Below are positions 26,116 to 64,000 of a stretch of DNA of 64,000 bases, piece by piece (the first letter of the stretch is position 1; each line of letters begins with the position of its first letter). The notes beneath the pieces are model-generated. The model ran no database searches and had not been told where the DNA came from. It saw only the letters and a program-made list of their open reading frames with translations. Position numbers and translations under genes: made by a program. The DNA is taken from the NCBI GenBank assembly GCA_965220325.1, contig OZ244821.1, positions 1,331,820 through 1,395,819 of the forward strand, given 5' to 3'. The stretch comes from Candidatus Poribacteria bacterium. GTDB lineage: Bacteria; Poribacteria; WGA-4E; WGA-3G.

Positions 26116-26191
26116 AAACTAAATATTTCGGCAATTTTGGTAGGAATAGTATTAGATTATCTATCGCAACGGAAATCAACAAAAGGAGTTC

Positions 26192-29257: not shown

Positions 29258-29295
29258 GTTTCTATCAAACCTAAAAAAATAAGGTGCGCGAACCT

Positions 29296-36228: not shown

Positions 36229-36426
36229 CATGAGAAGGACAGAACTTATGTAAACAGCTGTGCTTGGATATTTCTGCGGACTTCTTCAAGGGCACCGCCG
36301 TAGGGGTTGGTCACCTAACCCCTACGAAATGTCCACATATTTTTAGATTTTGCTATATATCAAGCTTATGTTTATATAAGTTCAGCCTTTATCAAGAAGA
36401 TATATTGTCCAATACAAAGGGTTAGA

Positions 36427-40332: not shown

Positions 40333-40388
40333 TAGTCAGTAGAAAAACCGTACTGAAAACTGACATCCATTATAATAAGGAATTCATT

Positions 40389-47670: not shown

Positions 47671-50600
47671 ATGATGAACCGATTAGATGACAACGATCCT
47701 CCGATTATGCTTGAAAGTGTAGGATTCAAGGGCAAACGCTCGTCCATCGTTCTAGTTGTATGTCTTTTATTTTTATTTTCTCTCTTCGTAATTACGAGTT
47801 GCGGTCCACTGGTAACCACCGATCCGCAATCTGGCATTCCGCTTAAGGATTCTGATACAAACTCGCGTCCTAAAAAGATGTGGCCCGTGAAACGGACGCT
47901 CGTCAGCAACGAAGTCAACTGTATTGCAGCAGATTCGGAGAACGTATGGATTGCAACAGCACACGGGATTTCGCGTTGGGAACGCACCGAAGATAAATGG
48001 CTGCACTACACGATGGAAGACGGACTGGCGAACGATATGGTGAACGCCGTTGCGATTGATGGGCAGTGGGTCTGGTTCGCTACGGATGAAGGCGTGAGTC
48101 GCTACGATATACAAACGGATACCTTTGCGACCTTCCGAACTATTGACGGCTTAGCGAGCGACCAGGTCTCCTCTATTGCTATTGATGGAAATTACGTCTG
48201 GTTCGGAACGTCTAATGGACTCAACCGCTATGACAAAACAATTGACAGTTGGGCGGTACGTACCCGGAAAGACGGGTTGGTCAGCAAAATAATTACAACC
48301 ATCGCTGTTGAGCCGGAGTACGTCTGGGTCGGCACCGATAGGGAAATCAACCCCGATCCGCATGGATGGGATCGGGATCCGAGGTTCAGCAAAGGCGGTG
48401 TGAGCCGCTACCATCGAGATACGGATTCATGGAATAATTATACAAAATCAGATGGTTTGATAGGCAGCGAAATCGCTACTATTGCCGTGGACGATGACAG
48501 CGTTTGGTTTGGGACAGAAAAAGAAGGGGTCAGTCAATACAATCAGGTCGATCAGACCTTCATTAAGACGTATACGAAAACCGACCTGTTGAAAAGCAAT
48601 ATGATGACCTGTATCCGTACAGATGGCTTCCAAGTCTGGTTCGGGACCGCCAACGCCGGTGTACACCGATTTATCAAACCCGTCAATACCTGGGTGCATT
48701 ACACCAAAGCAGACGGACTGTCAAGCAATCATGTGAGTTGGATTACCACACACGGTAATGATGTCTGGTTTGCGAGTAAAGAGGATGGGGTGAGCCGCTT
48801 TGATAAAGTAACCGGTGAATGGATAATTTACAAACAAGCCGATTTTCTTGCAGATAACGATGTCCGAGCGATAACACGTGATACCGATGGGAACCTCTGG
48901 ATGGCAACAGTCGGCGGAATCTCGGTTTACGTGCCTCAAACGCGGAGTTGGGAAATTATATCCAAAGAAGATGGACTGCCAACGCCATACATCACGTCAA
49001 TACTTATTAGCCAGAATAGTCAACAGCCATCAGGTAAAAAGGCTGGTCAGTTAAGAGATGGATCCACTGAACCAGATTCCTCTTTGCTGATAGCCGACAA
49101 CCGACAGCAGACAGCCATTTGGATCGGCAGCGATCGAGGGCTTGGTACAGCTACAGATATAAGCACCGAATGGACTTTTCATACGCCGCGAAATAGCAAT
49201 CGGCAGTCAGCAGACAGCAGACAGCAAGAGGCTGTCGGAGCATCGAAAACATCTTCGCCGACAGCAGACAGCAGACAGTTTCCGACAGCCATTCACAGCG
49301 AAGCGTTTGTGACCGCCCTTGATACCGATGCGGCACGCGCAAACTCTGTTATCTGGCTCGGTACCAGTTTAGGACCCGCCATGTATGATCCAATATCTCA
49401 AAAATGGACCCAGCTTGACGTGCCGGATGCCCCCAAAGATCCGCTTATATTATCTGTGCTTGTTCACGATGGGAGTGTTTGGTTCGGGGGTGCTGAGGGG
49501 GTTTGGCGATATTTGATCGCCGATAAGCAGATGCACCCTGCTATCGATGGGCTTCCCGACCTGTATGTTAATGTCCTCTTCTCCACGGGTGAAAAAGGGA
49601 AAGAGGAGACACTTTGGGCAGGAACACGCCGTGGGCTTGCCAGGTATGACATCAACCGCCAGCGTTGGGTCCCGTTATCCTTTAACGCACAATTACCCTC
49701 CCCCAATGTTACTGCGCTCGCTTTTCGAGATGGCACGCTCTGGATTGGCACACCACAAGGTCTCGGAAGCTACACGATTGTTTCCGATTCTTGGAATTCG
49801 CTCTCAAACGTACCGTATAACATTCGCGACATACTGTGTGCGGAAACCGATGAAATACTTTGGCTAGCGACGGACATCGGTCTCGTTGAATATCATAGCC
49901 GTGAAAAAACCGAAAACGTAGTCCGTAATGTAATGAAGGACGGGTCCACGGAGAAGCACTTGAAAACACTGGGGAAACACCCCAGCAAAAACACCCGCCT
50001 CACCGAACCGCAAGGTACTATAAAAATACATCAATCCCGTCCCGTGCGGGAACCGTTCTTTGAGACCAGAGTCTCACACATCAAATTTGATGGCGCTTAC
50101 ATCTGGTTTAATAATTGGAGAGCTTCGCCGAACGGTAGTATCGTGCGTTTTCATCGCCCAACAGCAACGTGGCGACGTTTCACGCGTTTAGATATTCTGC
50201 AATCCACGCAGAAGAGATCCATGACCTTTATCCGTTGGACCTACGTCGATACTAATGCCGTCTGGTTCACCACGGACTACGGTGTTCTCCGTTATAATAA
50301 AACTACGGATACGTGGCAGCATTTTACGACAGAAGATGGACTCTCTACAGACGATGTGGATAAAATTGCTGTCAGTGAGCAGAGCGTCTGGGTTATTCCG
50401 ATGATAGGTTTGGAATTAAACCGTTATGATAAAGCAACTGGAACGTGGGAAGTGGTAGAAGAAGAGGGGCACCGTGAGATTGAGACTATAAAATCACTCG
50501 GGGTTGATGGCCCGAACGTCTGGTTCGCGTCTGGGCGCGGACTCACGCGTTACAATGAGGTCACCGGTGAATGGAAAAATTTCGGACCCAGGGACGGATT

Positions 50601-52146
50601 GGCAGGTAGAGGCGCCGAATGGATTACTGTGGATGACGATTTTATTTGGGTTGCGCGTTCGGAATGGGACAGAGGCAGCAACCGTCCATTATCCCGATAC
50701 GATAAGAAAACAAAAAAGTGGACAACTTTCTCAACGAATGACGTACTTGCTGCTAGGACCATTAGACGCATTATCGCTACAGAGAACGATGTCTGGATAC
50801 TCTACAGACCCTGGGATGACGCCGGTGTCACCCGATACGATCGGCGTACAAAAGAGTGGACGACAATCCGCTCTGGCCGCGGAACGCTCGAACTCGCAGC
50901 CGATGACGATTATCTCTGGTTAGCTGCACCCAACGAAGGGCTTCGACGATTTCATTTTGCCTCCGGCACCTGGACAACGTTTAAAGATATCGAGGGGCTG
51001 CTCCATAATCACGTCGGTGAGTACGGGCTTGCAGTCGATCAAGACTATGTATGGGTCGGAACCTTACGAGGGCTTTCGCGTTATGACAAGCGGAAGGAAT
51101 CCTGGACACCTCTGACATCACTGCCAACCCTTTTGGGACGCACCATCCGGACGGTAGATACAGATGAACGTTTCGTCTGGATCGGTTCCGATAAAGGGAT
51201 GTCCCGCTACGACAAGGTTTTAGGTACCTGGAAAAATTATCGACAGAAGGGTGGGTCTGAAAACATAGAAACCCACGGCGGTCATTGGCACCGACATGGC
51301 AGGAAAAAGAGGGACTCCCTCTCCGATAACGTTGTGAGTTCTATCGTTGTTGATGAACAATACGTCTGGATCGGGACACGCGATGGCGCGAACCGTTTTG
51401 ATAAGATAGCATTGCGGTGGGACCAATACAAAACTGAGCATGGGTTGCCTGCGAATAATATAACTTCTGTTAGTAGCGATGGCAGTAGCATCTGGGTGGG
51501 AACTAATTCCGGGATTGGGAAGTATCCGCGCACAGCGGATGACCTCAACGCATGGATTACTTACACATCTGGCACTGAAATCCAACCGTCTGCCGTATCT
51601 AAAGAGTTCGCAGAATCATTGGTTACCGATCAAATCTGGTGTATCACGGCGAGTAAGAGACACGTCTGGGTCGGCACACGCCGCGGGGTGAGCAAATACG
51701 ATGTGGGTAAAGACATCTGGAAAACAATCACAGTGGAAGATGGACTCGCAAGCGATGAAGTCAGTTGTATCGCTATCGATGGCGATCGCGTCTGGTTTGG
51801 CAGTGATCGTGGTGTAACGCTCTATAATGAAAAGGCAGACGTTTGGGCTGCCTATACAACAGAAGATGGACTCGCAAGCAACAAGGTTACCACCATCGGT
51901 GTTGATGGCACAGAAGTCTGGATCGGTACTTACAATGCCGGGGTCAGCCGGTTCGATCAGTTGACGAATACCTGGACAACTTACACACGAGATGATGGTT
52001 TGGCACATAATGGTATCCTTTCCATGGCTATTGATAGTAACTATGTCTGGTTCGGCACCTATCGCGGGTTGAGCCGCTTCGATAAACGCACAGGCATCTG
52101 GACGGTCTTCACAGAGGTCTATGGACCAGAAGACATTTTGAGGTAG
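47671..52146 (+). CDS. Membrane-anchored/lipoprotein giant (1491 aa) made almost entirely of two-component-regulator propeller (Reg_prop) repeats
   Basis: N-terminal hydrophobic segment ending ...FVITSCG. More than 25 repeats of the pattern V..IA.D...VW(F/I/V)(G/A)T..G(L/V)SRYD....W..YT..DGL. No kinase, HTH or other output domain. Confidence 0.75.
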   Translation: MMNRLDDNDPPIMLESVGFKGKRSSIVLVVCLLFLFSLFVITSCGPLVTTDPQSGIPLKDSDTNSRPKKMWPVKRTLVSNEVNCIAADSENVWIATAHGISRWERTEDKWLHYTMEDGLANDMVNAVAIDGQWVWFATDEGVSRYDIQTDTFATFRTIDGLASDQVSSIAIDGNYVWFGTSNGLNRYDKTIDSWAVRTRKDGLVSKIITTIAVEPEYVWVGTDREINPDPHGWDRDPRFSKGGVSRYHRDTDSWNNYTKSDGLIGSEIATIAVDDDSVWFGTEKEGVSQYNQVDQTFIKTYTKTDLLKSNMMTCIRTDGFQVWFGTANAGVHRFIKPVNTWVHYTKADGLSSNHVSWITTHGNDVWFASKEDGVSRFDKVTGEWIIYKQADFLADNDVRAITRDTDGNLWMATVGGISVYVPQTRSWEIISKEDGLPTPYITSILISQNSQQPSGKKAGQLRDGSTEPDSSLLIADNRQQTAIWIGSDRGLGTATDISTEWTFHTPRNSNRQSADSRQQEAVGASKTSSPTADSRQFPTAIHSEAFVTALDTDAARANSVIWLGTSLGPAMYDPISQKWTQLDVPDAPKDPLILSVLVHDGSVWFGGAEGVWRYLIADKQMHPAIDGLPDLYVNVLFSTGEKGKEETLWAGTRRGLARYDINRQRWVPLSFNAQLPSPNVTALAFRDGTLWIGTPQGLGSYTIVSDSWNSLSNVPYNIRDILCAETDEILWLATDIGLVEYHSREKTENVVRNVMKDGSTEKHLKTLGKHPSKNTRLTEPQGTIKIHQSRPVREPFFETRVSHIKFDGAYIWFNNWRASPNGSIVRFHRPTATWRRFTRLDILQSTQKRSMTFIRWTYVDTNAVWFTTDYGVLRYNKTTDTWQHFTTEDGLSTDDVDKIAVSEQSVWVIPMIGLELNRYDKATGTWEVVEEEGHREIETIKSLGVDGPNVWFASGRGLTRYNEVTGEWKNFGPRDGLAGRGAEWITVDDDFIWVARSEWDRGSNRPLSRYDKKTKKWTTFSTNDVLAARTIRRIIATENDVWILYRPWDDAGVTRYDRRTKEWTTIRSGRGTLELAADDDYLWLAAPNEGLRRFHFASGTWTTFKDIEGLLHNHVGEYGLAVDQDYVWVGTLRGLSRYDKRKESWTPLTSLPTLLGRTIRTVDTDERFVWIGSDKGMSRYDKVLGTWKNYRQKGGSENIETHGGHWHRHGRKKRDSLSDNVVSSIVVDEQYVWIGTRDGANRFDKIALRWDQYKTEHGLPANNITSVSSDGSSIWVGTNSGIGKYPRTADDLNAWITYTSGTEIQPSAVSKEFAESLVTDQIWCITASKRHVWVGTRRGVSKYDVGKDIWKTITVEDGLASDEVSCIAIDGDRVWFGSDRGVTLYNEKADVWAAYTTEDGLASNKVTTIGVDGTEVWIGTYNAGVSRFDQLTNTWTTYTRDDGLAHNGILSMAIDSNYVWFGTYRGLSRFDKRTGIWTVFTEVYGPEDILR

Positions 52147-52195: not shown

Positions 52196-54148
52196 ATGAA
52201 GATAAAAACAGATGCCCGAAAGTACCTGATCCTTGGCTCGCTCCTCTTGTTGTTCAACGGTTCTCTGGTGTTCTATGCTGAGGCAGAGGACGTTTACAGT
52301 CTATTTGGTAAGTTGTTCTTGTCCGGACGGGTCGAATACGATTTCACAAACCGACGCAACTTCCTCGCTGGCACAGAGGAGGAACAGGTTAGGCAAGATA
52401 ATTTCGATTTTGATCGCCTTTTTCGACGCGGTTTCCACAGCGTTATGGTGATTGAAGAGACCGCAGGGAGCGTCAAAAATATCCTGAGTCTCGGAGAAGT
52501 TCCGACAACCTTCACCAAATTTACCTTCGATCAGATTGACCTAAGCGGCGTCCGCTGGGAGGTCCGCTCCAACCGCACCGATTGGACAATTCTAATGGTA
52601 CCCGGTTTGCTGAACCGACTGAACGGTCAAGAGGAACAGACTGAAGGTTCGGGGATCGGTTTGCGCGAAGTAACAAAGTTCGGTAGGTCGCAGCTGGGGC
52701 TTTCTTGGTATTTCCGTGAAGTCCCCGTATGGGCAGTGGACTTGGAAACCAATTTCACAAACTACGGTGTGAAAGCGGAGATAGCTATCACTCCCAAAAA
52801 TGCATTGCAAAAGAACTTGGGCTCACGGTTCGATGCAATGACGACAGTTTTCAAAGCCTTCCAAACCGTTGGTGATACCATTTTTCAGGCAGAAGCGTTT
52901 CGCGTCGGTCCACGATTTGATGCCTCCCGATCCGTCGGCGATAACGATGACCAAGACCGCTACTCCGATAACACGTTTCCTGACCCACCATCTCTGATTA
53001 TTCCTGGCGACCTTGATAAAAATAACAACGGCATCTTCGACTATGAGGATGACATCCTCCTTTTCGATGTCGATGAGGATTTCCTTGACGAGAGTGACCG
53101 GAATAACAACGGTATTCGGGATGAGGAGGAAAATGATAAGGACCCCAATTACGAATTCGATGTCGGACTCCGAGGCATTCGGCTTTTTATGAACCGTAAG
53201 ATAAGTCAACAGGCGAGCGTTGTTGACCTTGATCTCGGATTGCAGATAGAAGAAAACCTCAGACTCAGAAATACGCCCACCTCAACGAAAGCACTCGCTA
53301 ACCTCGTTTACCAGAGACAACTTGCACAAGCTTCCTCGCTCATTTTCGAGAACGAACTCAAATTGGTGAAGGATCGGATTCCCGACGAAACGTGGTATTA
53401 CGCCGGATTTTTGGGGAGACAGGATGAACGGCTCTATCGATCGCAACCAGAAATCCAGAAAATGGTGAGAGAGGGAGACCTGCAGTTCTTTTATGTTGAT
53501 GGGGGTGTCGAAGTCGAAAAAAGGCGCAGGGATCCCCGATTGATGCAGAACGATCTCATTAACACGGCTAAAGTCACATGGGAATATCGCGGAATTGAAC
53601 GAATGGTTACGACCGCTCGTGCCAAAATTCAGTACGATTATGATTTCGACAAAGATAACGAACATTACGAAGTCGGCATTTTCAAGACGCTGTACCGCCT
53701 ACGTCCCTCCAAATCTCTGGAGATCAGTCCCATGTTCAAGTATACTATTCGGAACGGTTTTCGGATGGCAGAGGACCGAGTCGAATATCTTCCGCTAAGT
53801 GCGGAAATTGACGGCGAAGAGGTATCGCGCAGGCTTCGATTGCGTGAGATTGAACAGACGCACGTACGCGATATGACACCAGCACTTATCCTTAAGGTCG
53901 TCTATCAGTTCACGAAAACCATCAAGCTCACCGGTGGTGGTCAAATCCTTTTGTTCAACGATATGCGTGATGATGCGAACGATTTTGTCCGTCAAGCACT
54001 TTTAGCAGAGATGGAGAAGAGTTTTGTCGCTTACGAGAAGCAGCTTTTTCTGCATATCGGCGCACGGTACATAGACCAACGCGCAATCGGAGATGTTAAC
54101 GATCAGAATTATATGGAAACTTTTGTCAGAGTTTTTGGGAAATTTTAA
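52196..54148 (+). CDS. Outer-membrane beta-barrel candidate with Asp-rich Ca-binding-like insert (paralog of 14085..17438)
   Basis: Signal peptide. Asp-rich stretch: DNDDQDRYSDN...DLDKNNNGIFDYEDDILLFDVDEDFLDESDRNNNGIRDEEENDKDPNYEF. C-terminal ...TFVRVFGKF matches ...TFVRAMVGF of the paralog. Confidence 0.55.
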   Translation: MKIKTDARKYLILGSLLLLFNGSLVFYAEAEDVYSLFGKLFLSGRVEYDFTNRRNFLAGTEEEQVRQDNFDFDRLFRRGFHSVMVIEETAGSVKNILSLGEVPTTFTKFTFDQIDLSGVRWEVRSNRTDWTILMVPGLLNRLNGQEEQTEGSGIGLREVTKFGRSQLGLSWYFREVPVWAVDLETNFTNYGVKAEIAITPKNALQKNLGSRFDAMTTVFKAFQTVGDTIFQAEAFRVGPRFDASRSVGDNDDQDRYSDNTFPDPPSLIIPGDLDKNNNGIFDYEDDILLFDVDEDFLDESDRNNNGIRDEEENDKDPNYEFDVGLRGIRLFMNRKISQQASVVDLDLGLQIEENLRLRNTPTSTKALANLVYQRQLAQASSLIFENELKLVKDRIPDETWYYAGFLGRQDERLYRSQPEIQKMVREGDLQFFYVDGGVEVEKRRRDPRLMQNDLINTAKVTWEYRGIERMVTTARAKIQYDYDFDKDNEHYEVGIFKTLYRLRPSKSLEISPMFKYTIRNGFRMAEDRVEYLPLSAEIDGEEVSRRLRLREIEQTHVRDMTPALILKVVYQFTKTIKLTGGGQILLFNDMRDDANDFVRQALLAEMEKSFVAYEKQLFLHIGARYIDQRAIGDVNDQNYMETFVRVFGKF

Positions 54149-54197
54149 GAAAAAATAGTGAAATTGTAGAGAATTATGCATTTTTTTGTAAATTAAC

Positions 54198-54226
54198 TTG
54201 ACAAACAGTTTTATAGGGTGTATAAT
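54198..54226 (+). promoter_or_regulatory. Consensus sigma70 promoter with candidate BlaI-type operator just downstream
   Basis: TTGACA (54198..54203), a 17-nt spacer, then TATAAT (54221..54226). Downstream are the dyad ATTACG (54233..54238) / CGTAAT (54263..54268) and direct GTATTTA repeats. Confidence 0.55.
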
Positions 54227-54335
54227 ACTATTATTACGTATTTAGAATTAGTATTTACAGATCGTAATTCGCAACATGAACATTAACCTTCTGGTTCATG
54301 AGTCAAAGTCACCTTATATCTAAGGAGCATATCCG

Positions 54336-54722
54336 ATGAAAACCAAAAGATTACACCCATTAGAACTTGAAGTGATGAAAGTGGTATGGAAACTGACGCG
54401 TGCCACGGTCAACGATGTCCTTGATAATATTAACCGTAAGCTCGCCTATACTACTGTCGCTACAACGATGAAAAGTCTCGAAAAGAAGGGTTTTTTGTCG
54501 CATCAAGTGGATGGTAGGACGTTCGTTTACCAGCCTTTGGTCAAAGAGGCAGAGATTACGCATTCCATGCTCAGCGATTTACTGGAACGCCTTTTTGACA
54601 ACTCTGCCGAAAAACTGGTGAACACACTCCTTGAAGTGCGACAAACCAGCGCAGATGAACACAATCGCTTACAAGCGTTGATTAACAACTACCAGCCTGA
54701 AGGAGAAGAAACCGATGACTAA
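54336..54722 (+). CDS. BlaI/MecI/CopY family transcriptional repressor
   Basis: Winged-helix N-terminus: LHPLELEVMKVVWKLTRATVNDVLDNINRKLAYTTVATTMKSLEKKGFLSHQVDGRTFVYQP. Overlaps the next gene by 8 nt. Confidence 0.85.
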   Translation: MKTKRLHPLELEVMKVVWKLTRATVNDVLDNINRKLAYTTVATTMKSLEKKGFLSHQVDGRTFVYQPLVKEAEITHSMLSDLLERLFDNSAEKLVNTLLEVRQTSADEHNRLQALINNYQPEGEETDD

Positions 54723-57105
54723 GCAAATTTTCCTTTCTTTACTAAATTGCTCGTGGCAGTGGGTGCTATTGGGTGGTTTGACATGGTTCATCACCGGTGC
54801 TGTGTTTCGCAAAAAGCGTCGTTCTAACACCACTGTTCACCTGTTATGGTTGTTGTCTTTACTCAGTTTACCGATCCTGTTCGGTTTAAATCAGTTTGTG
54901 CCAGCACTCTCTATAGGCGGAAACCCGGTGTCAGAATTAACACAGGTGGAATTAACACAGGTGGAGCCAGTAAACATGTCGGGTTTAGCTGTGCCAGCTA
55001 CAGACCTACCGCAGGTTTCATCCGTGGGCAGCGACACGCAAACCGGAAATCAACGCCTTACAGCGGATAAGTCCTTTTTCAGTTGGGAAACCAAGACGGA
55101 ACTGCTCTTGGGCATCTGGGCAATCGGGGCGTTCACTATGCTCGTCCGTTTCGTGTTCGGCTTGTGCCGAATCTATCAACTCCGACGCAATGCCGTAGTC
55201 GCTGATGATTCATATCAGGCAATCTGTCGAGGCTTGGCGCGGCAGCTGGACATAAAACGGACGGTCACCGTGTGCATCTCGGATCGGATAGCATCACCGA
55301 TCTCATTTGGTTGGTTATCACCGTCCATCCTGATTCCACGAAAGCTGAATTTGGAGCAGTTTGAGTTGGTAGCGGCCCATGAATTAGCACATCTACAACG
55401 ACTTGATTGGTTAACGACCCTCTTTTCGCACGTGATTGGGGTTGTTTTCTTTTTTCATCCAATTTACTACTTCCTCAATCGCGAACTCGTCCGCCTACGG
55501 GAACGCATCTGTGACGATTGGGTTATCCGATTGACAGGTGCCAGAAAAAACTACGCGCAGTGTCTATTGGATCTGGTTCGCCACAGAGATAGAACTATTC
55601 CACTCGCTTTGTCCCTCAATCAGCCGTCGCAGTTGGAATCTCGGATTGACGCTATTTTGAAAGACAATCGGCAGTTAGACGTACAATTGAAGCCGCGCTT
55701 GCGGCTGATAGCAGCAACCTTGCTCCTTACCTGTCTGCCCTTATTGGCAATGGCACAACTGGTTCCGCTGAAAACTTTCCAGGTCTCGCTGTTCGCTCAG
55801 ACACCTGAGAAATCAGAAGAAGCGGTTGAAAAGCAGCACGGACAAGAAGCGAAAGTTGAGAAAATCGGTGAGAAAGCGGACACCGAGGATTCGGGCATTG
55901 AAGTGGAAGACCCGACGCTATTTGACGGGTCCGAGGAAAACGGAATCGTCTCCGGACCACAGCCCGGGGAAAAATTGCCGCCGTTGAAAGTAACTGGCAT
56001 TCGTGGCGACCTCGACGGTGAAACGTTTGATATCACCGCTAAAGCAGATGGAAAACCGATCATCTTATTCTTGCAAGACCCCGATGAAGCTGGCATAAAG
56101 GGACTTGTTCACGTGTTCGAGTGGCTGAAAAAAATTGGTGATTTCAAGAAAAAACAGAACAACGCGTCTGGTCTTGAATTTCAGATAGGCGTTGTGTTCC
56201 TTACAGATGATGCTGATGCGTTGCCTGAATCGGCTCGGGATGTTTTTGAAAAGCACCTTCCAGACGAGATTATAGTAGGGATCTCTCCCGATGGGCGTGA
56301 AGGGCCAAGCAGCTACCGGTTGAATCGGAGTGTTGCACAGACCGTTCTTATCGCTGAGGATGGGCAAGTGCTGCACAACTTCGCGTTCACAGAACCGATG
56401 CGCTCTCTCGGTTCACGCGTCGTTGGTACTATCGCCGATACGATCGGCGTAGTGTTTGTGCCGAAGCCTGTCGTCATTACCGAGATTGAGAGAGACAACG
56501 CTTCTGATCTTCCTGAGTGGGTAGAACTCCGCAACCTAAACGATAGCGAACTGAACTTGGAAGGTTGGACACTGGGCTCTACCACTACTATATTGAATGG
56601 CACGGAGTGGACTATCCAATTCAATGAAGATGTTAAAATCCCTGCTAACGGTTATCTGCTCCTTGACGCGGAATCGGTGAAAAAATTAGACATTACTGAG
56701 GGTGGATATGTGGTACTCCTGAGAAGAAAAGGGGAACGCAGTCCGACAATGGAGAAGGGCGCTGCTCACAATCGGGACCAAGACCCCTCGCTGGAAGAAA
56801 TCATTAAAAAGTTGGAGGAAAACGGGGTATTGATTCAACGATTCCTCATGGAGAAAGATGGGGCGCGTAATCATAAGCAGGGTCTCTCGCTGGAAGAAAC
56901 CATCAAAGAAGTGACGAAGGACACAGAGTTGATCCAACAACTCCTCGAGCAGCTGAAGGAAGGTGAGGGTGCGCGCAAGCGTTTGCGGGATCTCTCGCTG
57001 GAAGAAACCATCAAAGGGTTGAAGGAAGACATCGCACAACTCAAAGAACACCTCAAGCAACTCGAGGAAAAACACAAGCGAGTTTTTTCACCAAAAGAGG
57101 ACTAA
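54715..57105 (+). CDS. BlaR1/MecR1-like M56 membrane metalloprotease with a non-canonical extracytoplasmic region (thioredoxin-like segment, lamin-tail domain, coiled-coil repeats)
   Basis: N-terminal TM helices. M56 zinc motif AAHELAHLQRLDW. A further TM helix (LIAATLLLTCLPLLAMA). LTD pattern VVITEIERDNASDLPEWVELRNLNDSELNLEGWTL. Three LSLEE(T/I)IK-containing heptad-rich segments at the C-terminus. No penicillin-binding-type sensor domain recognised. Confidence 0.75.
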   Translation: MTKQIFLSLLNCSWQWVLLGGLTWFITGAVFRKKRRSNTTVHLLWLLSLLSLPILFGLNQFVPALSIGGNPVSELTQVELTQVEPVNMSGLAVPATDLPQVSSVGSDTQTGNQRLTADKSFFSWETKTELLLGIWAIGAFTMLVRFVFGLCRIYQLRRNAVVADDSYQAICRGLARQLDIKRTVTVCISDRIASPISFGWLSPSILIPRKLNLEQFELVAAHELAHLQRLDWLTTLFSHVIGVVFFFHPIYYFLNRELVRLRERICDDWVIRLTGARKNYAQCLLDLVRHRDRTIPLALSLNQPSQLESRIDAILKDNRQLDVQLKPRLRLIAATLLLTCLPLLAMAQLVPLKTFQVSLFAQTPEKSEEAVEKQHGQEAKVEKIGEKADTEDSGIEVEDPTLFDGSEENGIVSGPQPGEKLPPLKVTGIRGDLDGETFDITAKADGKPIILFLQDPDEAGIKGLVHVFEWLKKIGDFKKKQNNASGLEFQIGVVFLTDDADALPESARDVFEKHLPDEIIVGISPDGREGPSSYRLNRSVAQTVLIAEDGQVLHNFAFTEPMRSLGSRVVGTIADTIGVVFVPKPVVITEIERDNASDLPEWVELRNLNDSELNLEGWTLGSTTTILNGTEWTIQFNEDVKIPANGYLLLDAESVKKLDITEGGYVVLLRRKGERSPTMEKGAAHNRDQDPSLEEIIKKLEENGVLIQRFLMEKDGARNHKQGLSLEETIKEVTKDTELIQQLLEQLKEGEGARKRLRDLSLEETIKGLKEDIAQLKEHLKQLEEKHKRVFSPKED

Positions 57106-57207
57106 ATTATAACCCAAGTTGCCACTTTGTGACGCGACAAAGTCAACGATATGGCACATCTCTGAGAACCCAAGCAAAATTAACTGGCACAAGCCGTAAA
57201 TTTTGTC

Positions 57208-57262
57208 AGGACTTACGCATTTTTCCGTGATAACGGACATCCGATACACTGCAGGCGGGGTT
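57208..57262 (-). repeat. 55-nt intergenic repeat, copy 3 (reverse orientation)
   Basis: The reverse complement reads AACCCCGCCTG, 27 nt, then AAAAATGCGTAAGTCCT. Same length as copies 1 and 2. Confidence 0.6.
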
Positions 57263-57421
57263 TCAAACCCTGAAGAAACGCCCAAGCAAAAACCCTGCAG
57301 TGGGCTGCGTAAGTCCTGTTATTGCGTTTTTTGGATAGAATTATGCACCCGTTCCATCCATAAGTAGCGTCACCAGAAATGAAAGCACAATTATGCAACC
57401 ATCTATTTGTGGAGACGACCA

Positions 57422-60400
57422 ATGAAAAACAACGATGCCGAACTCATCCAACGCGTCCTTGAAGGCGACGATGATGCCTTCACTGTGCTGGTGAGAAAAT
57501 ACCAGAAGCAGGTGCACGCACTCGCATGGCGGAAAATCGGGGATTTCCATATCGCTGAGGAAATCACGCAGGACACTTTTCTGAAAGCATACAAACGGCT
57601 TTCCACACTCAAGAAACCGCAGCGGTTCGCAAGTTGGCTTTATGTCATCGCAGCGAATCGTTGTAGCTCATGGCTCCGGAAAAAGCGGTTGTGGACGCAG
57701 CCACTTGAGAACCTTGAGGAAACAGACGACAAGCAGCTACAACAATCGACGTATTCTGGATACGTCGCTGCGGAAAACGAACGCACAACCGTAGAGGCAC
57801 AACGCGATGTTGTTAAAAGGCTGCTTGCGAAACTACAGGAAAGTGAACGAACTATCATGACACTACACTACTTCGGTGAAATGTCCTGCACAGAGATCGG
57901 CACCTTTTTGGGAGTATCCAAAAATACTATCAAGAGCCGCCTCCGCCGCGCACAACAGCGCTTAAAGAAGGAGGAACCGATGATTCGAGAGGCTTTAGAA
58001 AACTTCCAGATCACGCCGAACCTCACAGAGAGTATCATGCAAGAGATCGCTCGCATTAAACCCGCTGCACCGTCGGGGAGTAAGCCATTCATGCCGTGGG
58101 CAGTCGCAGCTTCCACGGTGGCGGTGGTGTTACTAATGCTGGGCATCGGAAACCAACAACACGCACTCCGTTTCCAGAAACCCTATAACCTCGATGCCGC
58201 ATCGGAGATGACGGTTGAACTTATTGAAGCACCTGTTGTGCTGAACGTCGTATCTAAACCAGATACACGCACACAAATAGGGAGCACCAATACACCGGGC
58301 AAAAGTAGCAAGTCCGAACGACCACCAGATGATGCACCAGCACTCGTCGCAGAAGCACACGCGGATGAGCTTGTCGATGATTATACAAAATGGCATCTCC
58401 CAAAAGAAGCGAAAGCGCGGTTTGGAAAGGGAGGAATTAATGTCCTTCAGTTTTCACCGGATGGTACACAAATCGCTGTCGGAAGCAGCATCGGTGTGTG
58501 GCTATATGACCTAAATACTGGAAAAGAGATTACTATGTTCCCGGGAATGTGTGAATCTATCGCTTTTTCACCTGATGGGCAATTTATCGCAAGCGGTGGC
58601 GGGAAATATACATTTCATGCAGGATTCAGACTGTGGGAGATTGCGACTAGTCAAAAAGTGGCACTTATTGATGGCCCTCCTGCTGTCTCAGCACTGCAAT
58701 TTTCTGAAGATGGCGAAACACTACTCGGTTTGGGGAACTGGGGAGATTCAATCAGCAAGTTAAACGTTGAAACTGGAGAGGGAAATGTGAAAAATATTGA
58801 AGACCGTTCTTGGGAAAAAATACCAAGGAGAAGTATGCCGGAACCGTATGCCCTCACGGACGATAAATTTGCCGTTGGTGGCGAGAACGGAAAAATTCAG
58901 TTGTGGGGCACAACGATTGGTGAACAACTATCTACCCTCAGCGGACATGGAGAGGATTTAAAGAATCCGTTAATTGAGAAGCTTCAAGAGATGATTCAGG
59001 GTCAGCCGCCTGTTCCAGAGGGAAATAACCATGTTTTAGTCTTGGAATTTTCGCCTGATGGCACTAAACTCGCCAGCGGAAGCAAAGACAAAACAGTGCG
59101 ATTATGGAACACTACTACCGGCAACGAATTGGCTATTCTACGAAAACACACAGGATGGACAAACGTGTTAGCATTCTCTCCAAACGGGGAAAGGCTCGCA
59201 AGTGGAGGCACCGATAAAACAGTGCATTTGTGGGATACTGACACAGGTAAACTGATCACGACACTCAACAAACATCTCAGTAGTATTGCTGCACTCTCGT
59301 TTTCGCCTGATGGTAGAACACTTGCAAGTGGAAGCGCGGATGGCACTATTCGGTTCTGGAACACAGAAACCGGAGATTTACTACCCCTCAATATTACGGA
59401 ACACACGGAGTGGGTGAAAGCAGCCTCTTTCGTTAAAGATAGTTCTACACTTGCAAGCATCGCTTTTAATGGCGTAATTACTTTTTGGGATCTGCAGACA
59501 TCTCAAAAAACCGATGTTCAGATGACAGGACATCGAGATTTCTTACCGGCTTTGGCGTTTTCATCGGATGGGATTAAACTCGCAAACGTTAGCGCAAAAG
59601 CCACTATGTTCTTTGATCAAAGTTCCGGTATTTCAACATGGAGTGCAGACCATCTGGTTCGGCTGACGGATGTGACGACAGGGCGTGAGTTAGGGACATT
59701 AAATGAGACAAATGCTGGTGTTAATCCAGGCGCAAGTATGACTTTTTCGCCTGACAAAAAAACGGTGGCATTCGGAGAACAAGGCAAAATTCATTTATGG
59801 AATACGGAGACTGGTGCCAGCTTTGAAATCCCTCTTGTAGATAAACACAATGCTGATGGAAATGACGAGTTGGCACCTCCACCAGATATGATGATGCTTC
59901 TCCCAGTCCCTCAAATCGGTGCCCTGGTGTTCTCACCAGATGGGAAAAAACTTGTCAGTGGAACCATGGGCGGAAAGGTCCAGATGTGGGACGCTGAAAC
60001 TGGCGTTGAATTAGCCCCTTTCTTTGACGATGAAACCAAAAAAGAACCCGGTAAACTGAAGGCTACGGTCTCGTATCAGGATGGTATCACAGCGTTGGCA
60101 TTCTCTCCAAATGGTGCCTTGCTTGCTGTCGGAAGTTATAAACGTATCCGTTTACTCGGAAGCCATAAACAGAGTCGTCTTAAGGAAGTCCCCCACGGCG
60201 TCGAAACGTTAGTGTTTTCACCTGATAGTACTATGTTTGTTACTGGGCTCAGAAACGGAGGGATTGAATTATGGGATTTGCCAACCGGAGATAAACTCAC
60301 AATACTTGATGGGCATTCAGAACCAGTGGGAACCTTGGTATTTTCACCTGATGGAAAAACACTCGTCAGCACGGGACAAGACGGAACTATCCTCGTTTGG

Positions 60401-60448
60401 GATTGGAACGAAGTGCTCAAAAACTCGACTGTACAGGAAAAAGAGTGA
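57422..60448 (+). CDS. ECF sigma factor fused via one TM helix to a large extracytoplasmic WD40 repeat region
   Basis: Sigma70 region 2 (HIAEEITQDTFLKAYKRL...WLYVIAANRCSSWLRKK) and region 4 (IMTLHYFGEMSCTEIGTFLGVSKNTIKSRLRRAQQRLKK). TM helix WAVAASTVAVVLLMLGI. About 14 WD40-type repeats (FSPDG..LASGS.D.T(V/I)(R/H)(L/F)W(D/N)). ATG at 57422 with GGAG upstream. Confidence 0.8.
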   Translation: MKNNDAELIQRVLEGDDDAFTVLVRKYQKQVHALAWRKIGDFHIAEEITQDTFLKAYKRLSTLKKPQRFASWLYVIAANRCSSWLRKKRLWTQPLENLEETDDKQLQQSTYSGYVAAENERTTVEAQRDVVKRLLAKLQESERTIMTLHYFGEMSCTEIGTFLGVSKNTIKSRLRRAQQRLKKEEPMIREALENFQITPNLTESIMQEIARIKPAAPSGSKPFMPWAVAASTVAVVLLMLGIGNQQHALRFQKPYNLDAASEMTVELIEAPVVLNVVSKPDTRTQIGSTNTPGKSSKSERPPDDAPALVAEAHADELVDDYTKWHLPKEAKARFGKGGINVLQFSPDGTQIAVGSSIGVWLYDLNTGKEITMFPGMCESIAFSPDGQFIASGGGKYTFHAGFRLWEIATSQKVALIDGPPAVSALQFSEDGETLLGLGNWGDSISKLNVETGEGNVKNIEDRSWEKIPRRSMPEPYALTDDKFAVGGENGKIQLWGTTIGEQLSTLSGHGEDLKNPLIEKLQEMIQGQPPVPEGNNHVLVLEFSPDGTKLASGSKDKTVRLWNTTTGNELAILRKHTGWTNVLAFSPNGERLASGGTDKTVHLWDTDTGKLITTLNKHLSSIAALSFSPDGRTLASGSADGTIRFWNTETGDLLPLNITEHTEWVKAASFVKDSSTLASIAFNGVITFWDLQTSQKTDVQMTGHRDFLPALAFSSDGIKLANVSAKATMFFDQSSGISTWSADHLVRLTDVTTGRELGTLNETNAGVNPGASMTFSPDKKTVAFGEQGKIHLWNTETGASFEIPLVDKHNADGNDELAPPPDMMMLLPVPQIGALVFSPDGKKLVSGTMGGKVQMWDAETGVELAPFFDDETKKEPGKLKATVSYQDGITALAFSPNGALLAVGSYKRIRLLGSHKQSRLKEVPHGVETLVFSPDSTMFVTGLRNGGIELWDLPTGDKLTILDGHSEPVGTLVFSPDGKTLVSTGQDGTILVWDWNEVLKNSTVQEKE

Positions 60449-60584
60449 CCAACCCTATCTGCTTGGCAATCCTCCGCTCTAATGGTGTATAATTAATTGA
60501 ACGAAAGTTTACAGTTAATGTGATTTGAAAATAAGCGTGTGTCTTCTACAATAGCTCTGATTCAAAAACGTGAGCGGAGGAATA

Positions 60585-62855
60585 ATGAACAGGTTTTATA
60601 GGGTTCTACTTATATCTACACTGCTAATCGGTTCGGTTGTATTCGCAATCGAAGCACAAAAGGACGAAGCAACCGAAAATTATACAAAATGGGAACTTCC
60701 AAAAGCAGCGAAAGCACGATTCGGAAAAGGTGGGATTAATGCCATTCAATTCTCACCAGATGGCACACAAATCGCTGTCGCAAGTAGCATCGGTATATGG
60801 ATTTACGACCTAAAAACTGGAAAAGAGATAGACATACTACCGGGAAGATCTCAATCCATCGCTTTTTCACCGGATGGCAGATTTATCGCAAGTGGCGGCG
60901 GAAAATTCGCATTTCGTGGCGGCGGACTTCAATTGTGGGAAACAGCCACCGGTCAGAAACTTCAACTTATTGATGGGCATCACTCGGCATCAGAACTGCA
61001 CTTCTCTGAAGATGGAAAAACACTTGTCACTTTAGAAGGCTGGGGAGATGCAATCGGTAGATTAGATGTTGAAACTGGAGAAGGGAATGTCAAAAATATT
61101 GAAGACCGTTCTTGGGAAAAGATGACGCAGCGGAGCAGTCCTGAACCTTATGCACTCACGCACGACAAATTTGCGATCGGAGGTCAGGTCGGGAAGATTG
61201 AATTGTGGGATACAACGACAGGCGAAAAACTGTCTATGCTCAGTGGTCACGGCGGACCTTTACCGGCAGTAGATAGAGAGATCGTAATTCCGGAGGGGGT
61301 TCGTGATCAGATGTTTTTCCCGGACGCGGGTGTTCACGTGTTAGTCTTGAAATTTTCGCCGGACGGAACAAAACTCGCAAGCGGAAGTAAAGATAAAACC
61401 GTCCGATTATGGGATACAAACACTAACGAAGAATTGGTTATCCTACAAAAACATACTGGATGGATAAATGCATTAGCATTCTCCTCCGATGGTAAACAAC
61501 TCGCCAGTGGCTGCACCGACAAAACAGTGAATATATGGGATACCGATACGGGTGAACTCATCGCAACATTCACCGGACATCTAAACGGTATTGTCGCACT
61601 ATCGTTTTCACCCGACGGTAGCATGCTCGCAAGTGGTAGCACGGATGGAACGATAAAATTCTGGAACACCCAAACAAAAGATTTGCTACCTATCAGCATT
61701 ACAGAACATACGAAGTGGGTCAAAACGGTGTCCTTCTCTGAAGATAATTCCGCGCTCGTAAGTGTCGCATTTAACGGCATCATTGACTTTTGGAACCTGA
61801 AGACATGGCAAAAAACCGGTTCTCAAAATGCTGTACATGGGGATTTATTGCGCGGCTCAGTACTTTCACCCGACGGAACAAAACTCGCAAGCGCTGGCGC
61901 AAAAGCCACTATGTTTTTTGAGGCAGGCAGTTCAGGTGCAACCCTCTCCTCTCAAATGGCGGATCGACGAGTTCAGCTAACGGAGGTGGGGACAGGACAT
62001 GAATTAGCAGCCCTAAATGAGACAGATGGTGTAATGGATCCAGGCAACAGTATGGCTTTTTCGCCGGATGGAAAAACAGTAGCCTTTGATGGCTCGGGCA
62101 AAATTTATGTGTGGAATACAGAGACAGGGAACAGCGTTAACATCTCGCTTATAGATGAAGAAAATGTGCCAGAAAATCCAAACAATGCCGATGGAAACGG
62201 TGATTTCGAGTTTCCACCCGGCCTGATGCAGCGTCATATTATACCTTCCATCAGCGCCTTGGTGTTCTCGTCTGACGGAAAGAAACTTATTAGTGGAAAT
62301 ATGGGCGGGAAGGTACAGATGTGGGACGCTGAAACCGGTGTCGCGTTAGCTCCTTTTCTTGCGGGACAGGATATGGAGAAAGCTGTAAAAGGCGGCCCTG
62401 GTAATTTTACTGTTACATATAGTGATATTGTTAGGGCACTTGCGTTCTCTTCAAACGGCACGTTGCTCGCTGTCGGAAGTAACCAAAAAATCCGTTTGTT
62501 GGGGAACAGCAAGCAGCCTCCTCTTAAAGATGCACCACGCGGTGCTGAATCGTTAGTGTTTTCTCCTGATGATACCATCCTCGTTGTGGGACTTAGAATG
62601 GGCGGAATCGAATTATTCGATTTGACAACGGGTAAGAAAATTACCACGCTCAATGGACACACAGCAACAGTAGAGACGTTAGTCTTTTCACCCGATGGAA
62701 AACACTCGTCAGCACAGGACAGGACGGAACTATCCTTGCGTGGGATTGGAACGAAGCCGTTAAATAGTTATAAGTTAAGAACTTGTGTCTGGTACATTTT
62801 CTATTACTGCCACAATAATACTCTTAACCTACCACTTATAACTTACCACTTATAA
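60585..62855 (+). CDS. Secreted WD40 repeat protein, paralog of the sigma-fused WD40 region; 3' end frameshifted
   Basis: ATG at 60585 with GGAGG upstream. Signal peptide MNRFYRVLLISTLLIGSVVFAIEA. Collinear with residues ~330-1008 of the upstream protein. After 62702 the frame departs from the paralog, at an A4 versus A5 run. The paralog-like frame would stop at 62765..62767. Confidence 0.75.
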   Translation: MNRFYRVLLISTLLIGSVVFAIEAQKDEATENYTKWELPKAAKARFGKGGINAIQFSPDGTQIAVASSIGIWIYDLKTGKEIDILPGRSQSIAFSPDGRFIASGGGKFAFRGGGLQLWETATGQKLQLIDGHHSASELHFSEDGKTLVTLEGWGDAIGRLDVETGEGNVKNIEDRSWEKMTQRSSPEPYALTHDKFAIGGQVGKIELWDTTTGEKLSMLSGHGGPLPAVDREIVIPEGVRDQMFFPDAGVHVLVLKFSPDGTKLASGSKDKTVRLWDTNTNEELVILQKHTGWINALAFSSDGKQLASGCTDKTVNIWDTDTGELIATFTGHLNGIVALSFSPDGSMLASGSTDGTIKFWNTQTKDLLPISITEHTKWVKTVSFSEDNSALVSVAFNGIIDFWNLKTWQKTGSQNAVHGDLLRGSVLSPDGTKLASAGAKATMFFEAGSSGATLSSQMADRRVQLTEVGTGHELAALNETDGVMDPGNSMAFSPDGKTVAFDGSGKIYVWNTETGNSVNISLIDEENVPENPNNADGNGDFEFPPGLMQRHIIPSISALVFSSDGKKLISGNMGGKVQMWDAETGVALAPFLAGQDMEKAVKGGPGNFTVTYSDIVRALAFSSNGTLLAVGSNQKIRLLGNSKQPPLKDAPRGAESLVFSPDDTILVVGLRMGGIELFDLTTGKKITTLNGHTATVETLVFSPDGKHSSAQDRTELSLRGIGTKPLNSYKLRTCVWYIFYYCHNNTLNLPLITYHL

Positions 62856-62858
62856 CTA

Positions 62859-63887
62859 TTAAAACCTAATCCTAAGAGACATGCGGTGGCTGCCGCCTAA
62901 TGCGGGGTGATTCGCGAACGCGTAGTCTAACCCAGCACCGGCACCGGTAACGAAGCTTAGGTTCAATCCTGCACCTGCTGTCAAACGTCGAATGCTTTCG
63001 ATACCCTTGCGTTCATCAAAACCGATGCGCAGCGAAAGCAGATCAAAGAGAGTCCATTCAGCACCGCCATGCAACTCAACACCCTCCTGAATATAGGTAT
63101 CCAAAGCGAAAATGAGTGTGCTTTGGAAAATAGCGAGTGCATGTGTCGTCGCAATGCCGATTTTCAGATTCGGCGATATTGTCTCGGTGTGCGAGGCCAA
63201 GTCTGCTGATGGCGGAGGCGTGTTCCAATAAATTTTTGTTTGAAATGCGTCGCTCGCTTGCAATCCGAGCGTCAGGCGATGCGGTCTCTCGGCAGATGTC
63301 GTTGCAACGAAACCGATATCAGCACCCCCACCGATAGCGTTTGTGGTCCGATAGCCACTCATGTAGAGAAGTTTAAGGGTACCGCCGAGATGGAAATTGA
63401 CACCACTGAAGGAAGGGATCGTCCAACCAGAGGAGAGCAGGAACGCGTTGTCTGTATTGTTGAAAGTTCCCATTACCTGTGGACGGTTTGTTGGTCCGAC
63501 AGGACGACTCACGACTGGCAGGCTGGTGATCGGAATATCGTTAACACCGACACGTAGCCAACTGACACCAATCGCGCCACGATTTTTCAGGGGATGGATG
63601 TAACTCACAAAATCGTAAGCATCCTGTCCGTTGAGTGTGGAATGCATGAAACTGACCTCATATCGGGTAAGTTGCCCCAACCCAGCAGGGTTCCAGTAAG
63701 CCGCGTAAGCGTTATCACTCAACGCAGTACCCGCGCCTCCCATAGCGAGCGCGCGCGCACCGACACCAAGCGTCAGGAAGTCCGCCGTATATCTTGCATC
63801 CACAGATTGGATGGTCCCCGCAAAGAAGGTTATTATGGTCACAAAGAAGTAGACAATATTTTTTTTAAGATGTTTCATTTTTTTCAT
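62859..63887 (-). CDS. PorV/PorQ-like outer-membrane beta-barrel protein (T9SS-associated family; tentative)
   Basis: Signal peptide, then FLTLGVGARALAMGGAGTALSDNAYAAYWNPAGLGQL, a motif characteristic of PorV/PorQ-type proteins. C-terminal ...HRMSLRIRF. The ATG at 63887 has GAGGTG upstream. Confidence 0.5.
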   Translation of the reverse strand: MKKMKHLKKNIVYFFVTIITFFAGTIQSVDARYTADFLTLGVGARALAMGGAGTALSDNAYAAYWNPAGLGQLTRYEVSFMHSTLNGQDAYDFVSYIHPLKNRGAIGVSWLRVGVNDIPITSLPVVSRPVGPTNRPQVMGTFNNTDNAFLLSSGWTIPSFSGVNFHLGGTLKLLYMSGYRTTNAIGGGADIGFVATTSAERPHRLTLGLQASDAFQTKIYWNTPPPSADLASHTETISPNLKIGIATTHALAIFQSTLIFALDTYIQEGVELHGGAEWTLFDLLSLRIGFDERKGIESIRRLTAGAGLNLSFVTGAGAGLDYAFANHPALGGSHRMSLRIRF

Positions 63888-64000
63888 GATTAACACCTCA
63901 GTACTGATCCATTTCATTACACGGTGGTTTCCAACGTGTTCAAACCCCTTCGGATGCTTCTAAACCAGCTGGAACTGACCAAAAACCATCGTGAAACGTA

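Follow-up and report, generated by a model that had tools for sequence, protein, structure and literature searches.

A BlaI/BlaR1-type pair and a membrane-tethered ECF sigma factor as probably independent modules adjoining at a mobile-element end in Candidatus Poribacteria

The window analysed here is a 64-kb stretch of a Candidatus Poribacteria genome, and our subject within it is a run of four plus-strand open reading frames (ORFs): a BlaI-type repressor gene (ORF1, blaI), a BlaR1-like protease gene (ORF2), a gene that joins an extracytoplasmic function (ECF) sigma factor through a transmembrane (TM) helix to a WD40 ectodomain (ORF3, sigma-TM-WD40) and a WD40 paralog (ORF4). Comparison with loci from other genomes and metagenomes (numbered L001, L002, L004 and so on) indicates that these genes probably form two independent signalling modules, adjacent only in this genome through a rearrangement at the end of a mobile element, the second of them built on a sigma factor that would be of the release type. 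Poribacteria are uncultivated sponge symbionts reputed for eukaryote-like repeat proteins, and all named relatives of ORF2 and ORF3 are themselves Candidatus Poribacteria. A preliminary description of the stretch had united the four genes in one envelope-signalling cassette in which the neighbouring M56 protease would release the sigma factor. Its four consecutive genes and the domains it named are confirmed by the ORF listing and by Pfam and NCBIfam searches; neither the single cassette nor the role given to the M56 protease is supported, in view of the absence of linkage elsewhere, a promoter belonging to ORF3 itself and a junction at a mobile-element end.

Two syntenic blocks and their junction

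The left block, as delimited by synteny, comprises a Reg_prop/PorZ-like gene, a gene for a 650-aa protein, blaI, blaR1 and a miniature inverted-repeat transposable element (MITE); the right block comprises an ECF-type promoter, the sigma-TM-WD40 gene, the WD40 paralog and a PorV-like gene. A scan of a genome collection with ORF2 returned seven loci, each from a different Poribacteria species, at 59–87% amino-acid identity; no protein exactly matching the BlaR1 of the window is on record. At all seven, blaI lies directly upstream of blaR1, preceded by the 650-aa and Reg_prop genes wherever the flank extends far enough, and at none of the seven does a sigma-WD40 gene follow blaR1. In the other genomes blaR1 is followed instead by one or two genes that carry copies of the domain at residues 395-579 of ORF2, with DUF1501, PQQ-propeller and PSCyt/PSD genes after them in L004.

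The reciprocal comparison gave the same separation. The closest relatives of ORF3, judged by amino-acid identity of the sigma module, lie in L010 (93%), L001 (89%), L002 (80%) and L011 (78%), and blaI/blaR1 precede the sigma gene at none of these four loci. What is kept there is the right side, with the PorV-like gene present in L001, L002 and L011 and the free WD40 paralog in L002 and L011. A metagenome scan added 15 further family loci holding ~24 sigma copies, and tblastn searches of their flanks for BlaI or M56 gave 0 matches. The survey of sigma-WD40 neighbourhoods that the preliminary description had called for has therefore found no linked BlaR1 or BlaI genes at the four ortholog loci or beside the ~24 further copies, and in every comparison available only this genome shows the linkage, an outcome that the preliminary description had itself named as a refutation of its model. 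As an observation on the sigma side, a small single-propeller (7-bladed) WD40 gene of 324–356 codons precedes the sigma-WD40 gene in L011 (8796-9832), L001 (8813-9883) and L002 (8488-9558); it is absent from the window, where the blaI/blaR1 block stands in its place.

The two blocks meet at a sharply defined position. Nucleotide similarity to L004 (92%) spans 54151-57272 and ends at the MITE or shortly beyond it, and similarity to the sigma-block loci L001, L002, L010 and L011 starts at ~57327-57337, L010 (the closest sigma relative) departing from the window upstream of ~57328; these limits place the synteny breakpoint at 57318..57328. The left block is closed by a MITE-like palindrome of 112 bp at 57207..57318, which has 13-nt perfect inverted termini (CAGGACTTACGCA) and a predicted RNA fold of -53 kcal/mol (z -5.3), and the blocks meet ~9 nt past its right end. 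L004 holds both arms of the palindrome, as an orthologous copy 3′ of its blaR1.

The palindrome termini (AGGACTTACGCA) are identical to those of a 1091-bp insertion sequence (IS) with a DDE_Tnp_1 transposase in L001 (13033-14123), which sits exactly at the place expected for the ORF4 ortholog. At least seven copies of 100–135 bp, that of the window and six others, share these termini and have unrelated interiors. We regard the element at 57207-57318 as MITE-like on the strength of termini held in common by the L001 IS and by short elements with unrelated interiors, together with its small size and lack of a transposase. The flanks of the window copy (TAAATTTTGT and TTATTGCGTT) show no clear target-site duplication; those of the L001 IS share ATAAG. 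Other sites of this IS/MITE family were noted in the window at 26104-26116 (minus strand) and in L004 (12532-12624 and 19966-20087), L003 (7490-7610 and 12920-13040), L005 (19227-19350) and L009 (8611-8732). Taken on the sequence comparisons, the adjacency of blaR1 and the sigma gene looks like a rearrangement scar, an assembly join at the repeat being less likely; whether real or mis-joined, a junction at a MITE end argues against a four-gene cassette maintained by selection.

The tethered sigma family, its promoter and its sigma-less copies

ORF3 encodes a membrane-tethered ECF sigma factor of 1008 aa at 57422..60448 on the plus strand. It had been listed as 57407-60448 from a TTG codon; the true start is the ATG at 57422 (MKNNDAELIQ...), where all homologs begin, with MKN(N/D)D. 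The protein is laid out as a sigma2/sigma4 core (aa 1-185), a conserved post-sigma4 segment (aa 186-220), a TM helix (aa ~222-245), a conserved periplasmic stalk (aa ~250-288) and a WD40 ectodomain of ~700 aa. Its core matches Sigma70_r2 (2.8e-15), Sigma70_r4 (7e-12) and Sigma70_ECF (7e-8) in Pfam and TIGR02937 at 94.4 bits against a cut-off of 42.9; SigW is the nearest PDB entry (2.8e-24), and no NCBIfam subfamily model reaches its cut-off. With sigma2 and sigma4 present and sigma1 and sigma3 missing, ORF3 has the composition of an ECF (group 4) sigma-70 factor. Residues ~340-1000 match WD40 at 6.7e-75 as well as many beta-propeller families, and the segment at aa 222-245 is the single hydrophobic one in ORF3 and the sole such segment in 94 of 120 homologs. 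The earlier proposal of a membrane-tethered sigma factor with a WD40 ectodomain is thus upheld at gene level, the tether being a single TM helix.

When the N-terminal 330 residues were used as a query, 1959 relatives were recovered, the best 120 of them 62–93% identical. An alignment of 45 members defines a conserved post-sigma4 segment (EEPMIREALxNFQITPNLTENIMREISRLKP) and, beyond the membrane, ~40 conserved periplasmic residues (RFQKPYSFDAxSEMTVELIEAPxVLNLESKPDVRTQLG), past which the sequences diverge. About one third of the matches listed carry a WD40 ectodomain; others among them carry PF25852, CarboxypepD_reg, LRR or BNR-type domains or a "...DGNTLYVGT..." repeat. Intact members in short-read contigs measure 907–1089 aa, which makes ORF3 a typical family member. 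Family genes also occur in tandem head-to-tail arrays with ~3.3-kb spacing and a family promoter for each copy, of four genes in L018 (149-13100), three in L022 (2191-13000) and two in L019; L018 and L022 derive from one 552-kb contig, which therefore holds at least 7 copies.

Frameshifts are frequent in this family. The sigma-WD40 orthologs of L001 (10001-13025) and L002 (10001-13062), both from long-read assemblies, are each split into two ORFs, and many family matches of 280–570 aa are mostly frameshift fragments from long-read assemblies, several of them breaking just after "...QQP|DE". Programmed truncation was considered for these short matches and recurrent frameshifts and was rejected on the grounds that copies in short-read contigs are intact at 907–1089 aa; the short matches probably reflect long-read assembly error rather than biology, with a slippery site as the alternative.

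ORF3 has a promoter of its own at 57337..57377 on the plus strand, with the form AGAATTATGCACCCGT-N13-AGCGTCACCAGA. Nearly all family members share this arrangement, in which a T-rich run and AGAATTATG(C/A)(A/G)(A/C)C are followed after 12–13 nt by AGCGTCAC(T/C)A, 45–85 nt upstream of the ATG. A CGTC block at a spacing of ~17 nt is a hallmark of ECF-type promoters. A two-block position weight matrix (PWM) built on this pattern gave a single hit in the 64-kb window, at 57337, with a score of 40.7 (shuffled sequences gave ~0.1 hits), and in the other loci its hits lay almost exclusively upstream of family sigma genes, with an extra site at the small WD40 gene of L011 (score 28.7). The single window hit and the concentration of the others upstream of sigma genes argue that ORF3 is an independent transcription unit, and the gene is probably autoregulated through the 57337-57377 promoter, as far as the motif's distribution can tell. 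The sigma2 and sigma4 residues are near-invariant across paralogs, a pattern that would fit a shared promoter specificity.

ORF4, at 60570..62855 on the plus strand, is a sigma-less paralog of the ORF3 ectodomain, as comparison with ORF3 and L002 establishes and as had been proposed. It is 62% identical to aa 316-996 of ORF3 over 698 aa, with the similarity beginning exactly where the variable ectodomain of ORF3 starts. A hydrophobic N-terminal segment (aa 8-30) and an A-x-A motif are all that ORF4 and its L002 ortholog retain in that region, features from which we infer a secreted or membrane-anchored protein. Relative to ORF3 and the L002 ortholog, one nucleotide is missing from an A-run of ORF4 at ~62699-62702, which puts the last ~45 residues of ORF4 (the last WD40 blade) out of frame; the loss reflects a sequencing error or else a recent mutation that inactivates the gene. 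The repaired protein has 732 aa and ends at ~62767 with ...DGTILAWDWNEAVK.

Pairing of a sigma fusion with a free WD40 copy recurs in three species (those of the window, L002 and L011), and this recurrence is the single element of the preliminary model to gain support; ORF4 may, as proposed there, act as a decoy or co-receptor. The L011 counterpart (756 aa) starts at the conserved Met of "...PMIREAL..." and keeps both the post-sigma4 helix and the TM helix, a short N-terminal similarity that BLASTP missed and that shuffle-tested local alignment revealed (score 92 vs 21 ± 4 in 2000 shuffles). By its sequence this copy is a fusion gene minus the sigma domain, with the topology of an anti-sigma factor. 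The free copies of the window and L002 are 81% identical, the ORF3 ectodomain and ORF4 63%, and the L011 sigma ectodomain and L011 free copy 62%, with 49–54% between L011 and window copies; this pattern implies that the pair has either formed anew or been homogenised by gene conversion. Over their last ~70 nt, ORF3 and ORF4 are nearly identical apart from the A-run deletion, which favours conversion.

The BlaI/BlaR1 pair, its sensor region and the surrounding genes

The repressor of the left module, a BlaI/MecI/CopY-family protein of 128 aa (ORF1, 54336..54722, plus strand), is covered over its full length by the winged-helix Penicillinase_R domain (aa 8-117 of 128; E 6e-32; 110.8 bits, cut-off 22.6) and is 85–99% identical in 7 other Poribacteria loci. 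Its partner, a BlaR1-like M56 membrane metalloprotease of 796 aa (ORF2, 54715..57105, plus strand), matches Peptidase_M56 at aa 33-314 (E 7e-34; 117.8 bits, cut-off 31) and has intact zinc-protease motifs, HELAH (aa 222) and ERICD (aa 263). Hydrophobic segments at aa ~39-67, 129-151, 236-254 and 328-354 are compatible with a BlaR1-like topology. An 8-nt overlap (ATGACTAA, 54715-54722) joins the two genes, as the preliminary description had stated.

Its claim of a consensus promoter with a dyad operator likewise stands. A sigma-70-type promoter, TTGACA-17-TATAAT, lies upstream of blaI-blaR1 at 54198..54226 on the plus strand and agrees with the consensus at 12/12 positions, and operator-like dyads (AATACTA..TAGTATT, TACGTA and ATTACG..CGTAAT) overlap the -10 element and extend 3′ of it at 54224..54268. 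Footprinting across eight genomes found the -35 and -10 hexamers, the element ATACTATTAtTACGTATTTagAAtTAGTATTTa...cGTAAT immediately 3′ of them and the ribosome-binding site all kept, even at loci where BlaR1 is only 60–70% identical. The 21-nt operator core (54234-54254) occurs once in the window against zero expected occurrences, and the conserved dyad region looks like what an autoregulated BlaI operator would be, a putative assignment from its sequence. An 11-mer, AGAATTATGCA, lies upstream of the blaI -35 at 54170-54181 and also at 57337-57347, and was considered as a sign that blaI is under control of the sigma family; this was rejected because no GCGTC -10 block stands at the right distance, the 11-mer is poorly kept in orthologs and GAATTATG shows no enrichment in the window. 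The occurrence of AGAATTATGCA upstream of blaI is probably a coincidence.

The description of ORF2 as a BlaR1-like protease-sensor holds for its M56 motifs and fails for its sensor, the Pfam search having detected no penicillin-binding (class-D beta-lactamase-like) or transpeptidase domain. The NCBIfam model blaR1_generic reaches 71.8 (cut-off 400) and aligns over profile positions 21-326 only. The protein consists of a TM/M56 part (aa 1-354), a thioredoxin-fold domain (aa ~395-580), a lamin-tail domain (Pfam LTD match at aa 584-661) and a coiled-coil tail, the periplasmic part starting after the last TM helix (aa ~328-354). A PDB sequence search with the C-terminal region gave no match, and the thioredoxin-fold similarity emerged by fold search instead: an AF2 model of aa ~395-580 (pLDDT 85.7, pTM 0.80) retrieved in Foldseek DsbE 3gl3 (E 7e-7, TM-score 0.74) and also ResA, peroxiredoxins and Sco. 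The domain contains zero cysteines, which argues that it binds rather than catalyses redox chemistry.

Further Poribacteria M56+LTD proteins contain this domain (window 55897-56454), as do many ExbD/TolR-domain proteins; copies, often duplicated, lie in ExbD/TolR proteins 3′ of blaR1 in other genomes (L004 12745-14508; P0123, P0132 and others). From this distribution the cysteine-free thioredoxin-fold domain appears to be a Poribacteria-specific module, and its placement hints at a BlaIR system tied to an ExbD-type energy-transduction protein. If ORF2 works as BlaR1/MecR1 do (PMC7593790), its thioredoxin-fold and lamin-tail region would detect a signal in the periplasm, which would switch on the zinc protease at the cytoplasmic face (HELAH/ERICD), which in turn would cut BlaI and derepress the TTGACA-17-TATAAT promoter/operator.

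Among the surrounding genes, the left block begins with a Reg_prop/PorZ-like beta-propeller protein of 1491 aa with a hydrophobic N-terminal segment (47671..52146, plus strand; Pfam Reg_prop 1.7e-31, PorZ_N 1e-10), which scores under the cut-off of the NCBIfam T9SS_PorZ model and whose gene is syntenic with blaI/blaR1 in L004, L005 and L007. It is followed by the 650-aa protein (52196..54148, plus strand), which has a signal-like N-terminus, ends in ...VRVFGKF and has no match in Pfam or NCBIfam; its gene lies immediately upstream of blaI in L004, L005, L007 and L008 (86–91% identity) and is partial in L003, and its sequence features suggest that it may be an outer-membrane barrel. The right-block partner at 62859..63917 on the minus strand is a PorV/PorQ-family outer-membrane protein (NF033709, 107.9 against a cut-off of 90, aa 44-352) that falls under the cut-offs of all three equivalog models (PorV, PorQ and PorV2), and its gene adjoins the sigma-WD40 gene in L001, L002 and L011 at 76–90% identity. 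Elsewhere in the window, 26192-46115 encodes, in one cluster, surface proteins of very large size (1021, 588, 1617, 1301 and 680 aa). LRR, cadherin, lamin-tail, Big_9, dockerin and cohesin are found among their domains, and they are "eukaryote-like" proteins of a type common in sponge symbionts; four of them share a ~300-nt 3′ segment encoding FlgD_ig / Por_Secre_tail and look like cargo of a type IX secretion system (T9SS). An Rfam scan of the whole window gave zero matches.

Mechanism, rival explanations and known systems

For the sigma module, we picture a ligand or partner that would bind the ectodomain and expose the conserved stalk to a site-1 protease, after which an intramembrane site-2 protease would cut the TM helix and free the sigma domain to drive the shared ECF-type promoter of the family, that of its own gene included; the sigma-less paralog would probably pair or compete with the tethered ectodomain. 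Provided that the sensor works, proteolytic release would be the most likely mechanism, and we give it about an even chance. It is favoured by analogy, because the TM helix and stalk are kept whatever the ectodomain and because the fused sigma factors that have been studied (IutY, SCO4117) are released in this way.

Several points weigh against the reading of two independent modules with a releasable sigma factor. Within 10 kb the promoter motif is nearly confined to sigma genes and no regulon is thereby defined; ORF4 is frameshifted in the window; and an AF2 prediction of the sigma-tether-TM-stalk region from the 45-sequence alignment was confident for sigma2 and sigma4 only, with pLDDT <50 past residue 190, and was uninformative on a possible fold-back of the post-sigma4 helix onto sigma. 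The tether, moreover, has no recognisable anti-sigma domain: residues 181-325 of ORF3 have no Pfam match at E <= 10, and no FecR or ZAS anti-sigma domain was detected in a cytoplasmic linker of ~35 aa. A tethered sigma factor could therefore act unreleased, in the manner of ToxR or CadC, or be switched by oligomerisation of its ectodomain or by partner binding, an explanation we hold possible although doubtful. The recurring sigma-less paralog would suit partner binding, and the WD40-extended ECF57 group has been placed under "activated by protein interaction" (PMC8999054). A permanent tether is nevertheless hard to square with a general regulon, given that sigma must join the RNA polymerase core through promoter escape; the conservation of the TM helix and stalk across differing ectodomains resembles a common processing substrate, and the fused sigma factors studied experimentally are released by proteolysis (PMC8999054).

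The position of the junction bears on three further explanations. It could be an assembly chimera, two Poribacteria contigs having been joined at a repeated MITE/IS terminus, and we consider this unlikely: the breakpoint does fall within ~9 nt of a repeat present at many intergenic sites, the junction is reproduced in no other assembly compared, ORF4 has a homopolymer frameshift, and related long-read assemblies are rich in frameshifts, but the copies share termini of only 12–13 nt, short for a mis-join, GC content is equal on both sides, and genuine rearrangements at IS/MITE ends are common. Even if the junction were an assembly artefact, the two modules would be independent. If it is real, the adjacency could have gained a function in this genome, with read-through from the BlaI-controlled promoter past blaR1 adding an input to the sigma gene; the genes lie on the same strand with a 300-nt gap, and the MITE hairpin, whose T-run is non-canonical, is the sole barrier between them. 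Such capture appears quite improbable, however, since the hairpin, given its great stability, is likely to end or pause transcription, the promoter native to ORF3 is intact, and the arrangement is not conserved and so gives no sign of selection. Least probable by far, and in our judgement very nearly negligible, is a single cassette in which the M56 protease releases the tethered sigma factor. Adjacency on one strand, the analogous membrane-proximal proteolysis logic of both modules and a terminator scan in which the gap between blaR1 and ORF3 showed just a weak canonical terminator speak for it; against it stand the missing linkage at 7/7 blaR1-ortholog loci, 4/4 sigma-ortholog loci and ~24 further family copies, the conserved promoter of ORF3, the junction at a MITE end and the hundreds of family members that share the tether, whose processing, if any, needs something besides a linked M56 protease. 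The known substrates of M56 proteases are BlaI-type repressors, which also counts against it.

The claim that no system of this composition has been described needs qualifying, as both WD40 extensions of ECF sigma factors (ECF57) and the release of a fused sigma factor (IutY) already appear in PMC8999054, PMC7826278 and PMC7593790. ECF57 (formerly ECF01-Gob), abundant in Planctomycetes, is a group of ECF sigma factors with a WD40-like C-terminal extension, experimentally uncharacterised (PMC8999054, PMC7826278), with 5.3 paralogs per planctomycete genome (PMC7826278). The ORF3 family likewise joins an ECF core to a long WD40-rich extension, has many paralogs and has no separate anti-sigma gene; it differs in belonging to Poribacteria and in a chassis that also carries non-WD40 ectodomains. 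ECF57 further has two conserved cysteines, in sigma2 and sigma4 (PMC8999054), a pair that the ORF3 family does not keep: C81 (sigma2) is invariant in 45 sequences, whereas at the position of the sigma4 Cys (C156 in ORF3) many members have Ser or Tyr. These comparisons were made by stated features of the group.

IutY (ECF243) of Pseudomonas putida is a fused sigma/anti-sigma protein released by Prc and RseP (PMC8999054, PMC7593790). ORF3 resembles it as one polypeptide with an N-terminal ECF sigma factor, one TM helix and a periplasmic C-terminal domain; IutY, however, carries an anti-sigma domain of the FecR type and acts together with a TonB-dependent receptor, whereas ORF3 has a ~35-aa linker without a recognisable anti-sigma domain and a ~700-aa propeller, and no receptor gene is linked to it. 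The actinobacterial SCO4117 (ECF52), ECF48 and ECF53 also fuse an ECF sigma factor to a membrane-spanning extension, with proteolytic processing proposed (PMC8999054), and share with ORF3 the TM segment and extracytoplasmic domain; their ZAS domain, 1–2 TM helices and proline-rich and carbohydrate-binding regions set them apart, none of these regions having been detected in ORF3 beyond its single helix. In the literature searched, we found nothing linking Poribacteria to ECF sigma factors, and the Poribacteria family is best called a variant of the known ECF sigma factor with a regulatory C-terminal extension.

The left module shares with BlaI/BlaR1 and MecI/MecR1 of Staphylococcus, and with atypical BlaIR systems, the gene pair and order, Penicillinase_R, an M56 protease bearing HEXXH and EXXXD, and a promoter with dyads that is self-regulated (PMC7593790; bioRxiv 10.64898/2026.08.03.742534). 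It differs from BlaR1/MecR1 in that ORF2, which is without the class-D beta-lactamase-like sensor, has the thioredoxin-fold, lamin-tail and coiled-coil regions instead. Atypical BlaIR systems unrelated to beta-lactams are known from M. tuberculosis, M. abscessus and P. aeruginosa PvmSR (bioRxiv 10.64898/2026.08.03.742534); these simply lack a sensor domain, and the pair described here is a variant of such systems.

The finding that the two blocks are juxtaposed by chance removes a claim to a new four-gene architecture of dual regulated proteolysis and averts a misleading annotation. The left module, with a redox-dead thioredoxin-fold sensor that also occurs in ExbD proteins, widens the range of atypical BlaIR systems beyond beta-lactam sensing. 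The large family of tethered ECF sigma factors ties the WD40 expansion of Poribacteria to transcriptional signalling and supplies a concrete pair of promoter and sigma factor. More tentatively, the family may be a modular plug-in system in which a nearly invariant chassis (ECF core, ~35-aa segment, TM helix and ~40-aa stalk) receives swappable propellers of ~700 aa, of WD40 and at least one further repeat type, in tandem arrays and with one promoter class, the sigma-less copies serving as anti-sigma-like partners or decoys. Were this so, many different signals from the surface or the host would be channelled into a single promoter class, and the family would represent an undescribed ECF group and a new wiring of sensor arrays in an uncultivated animal symbiont.

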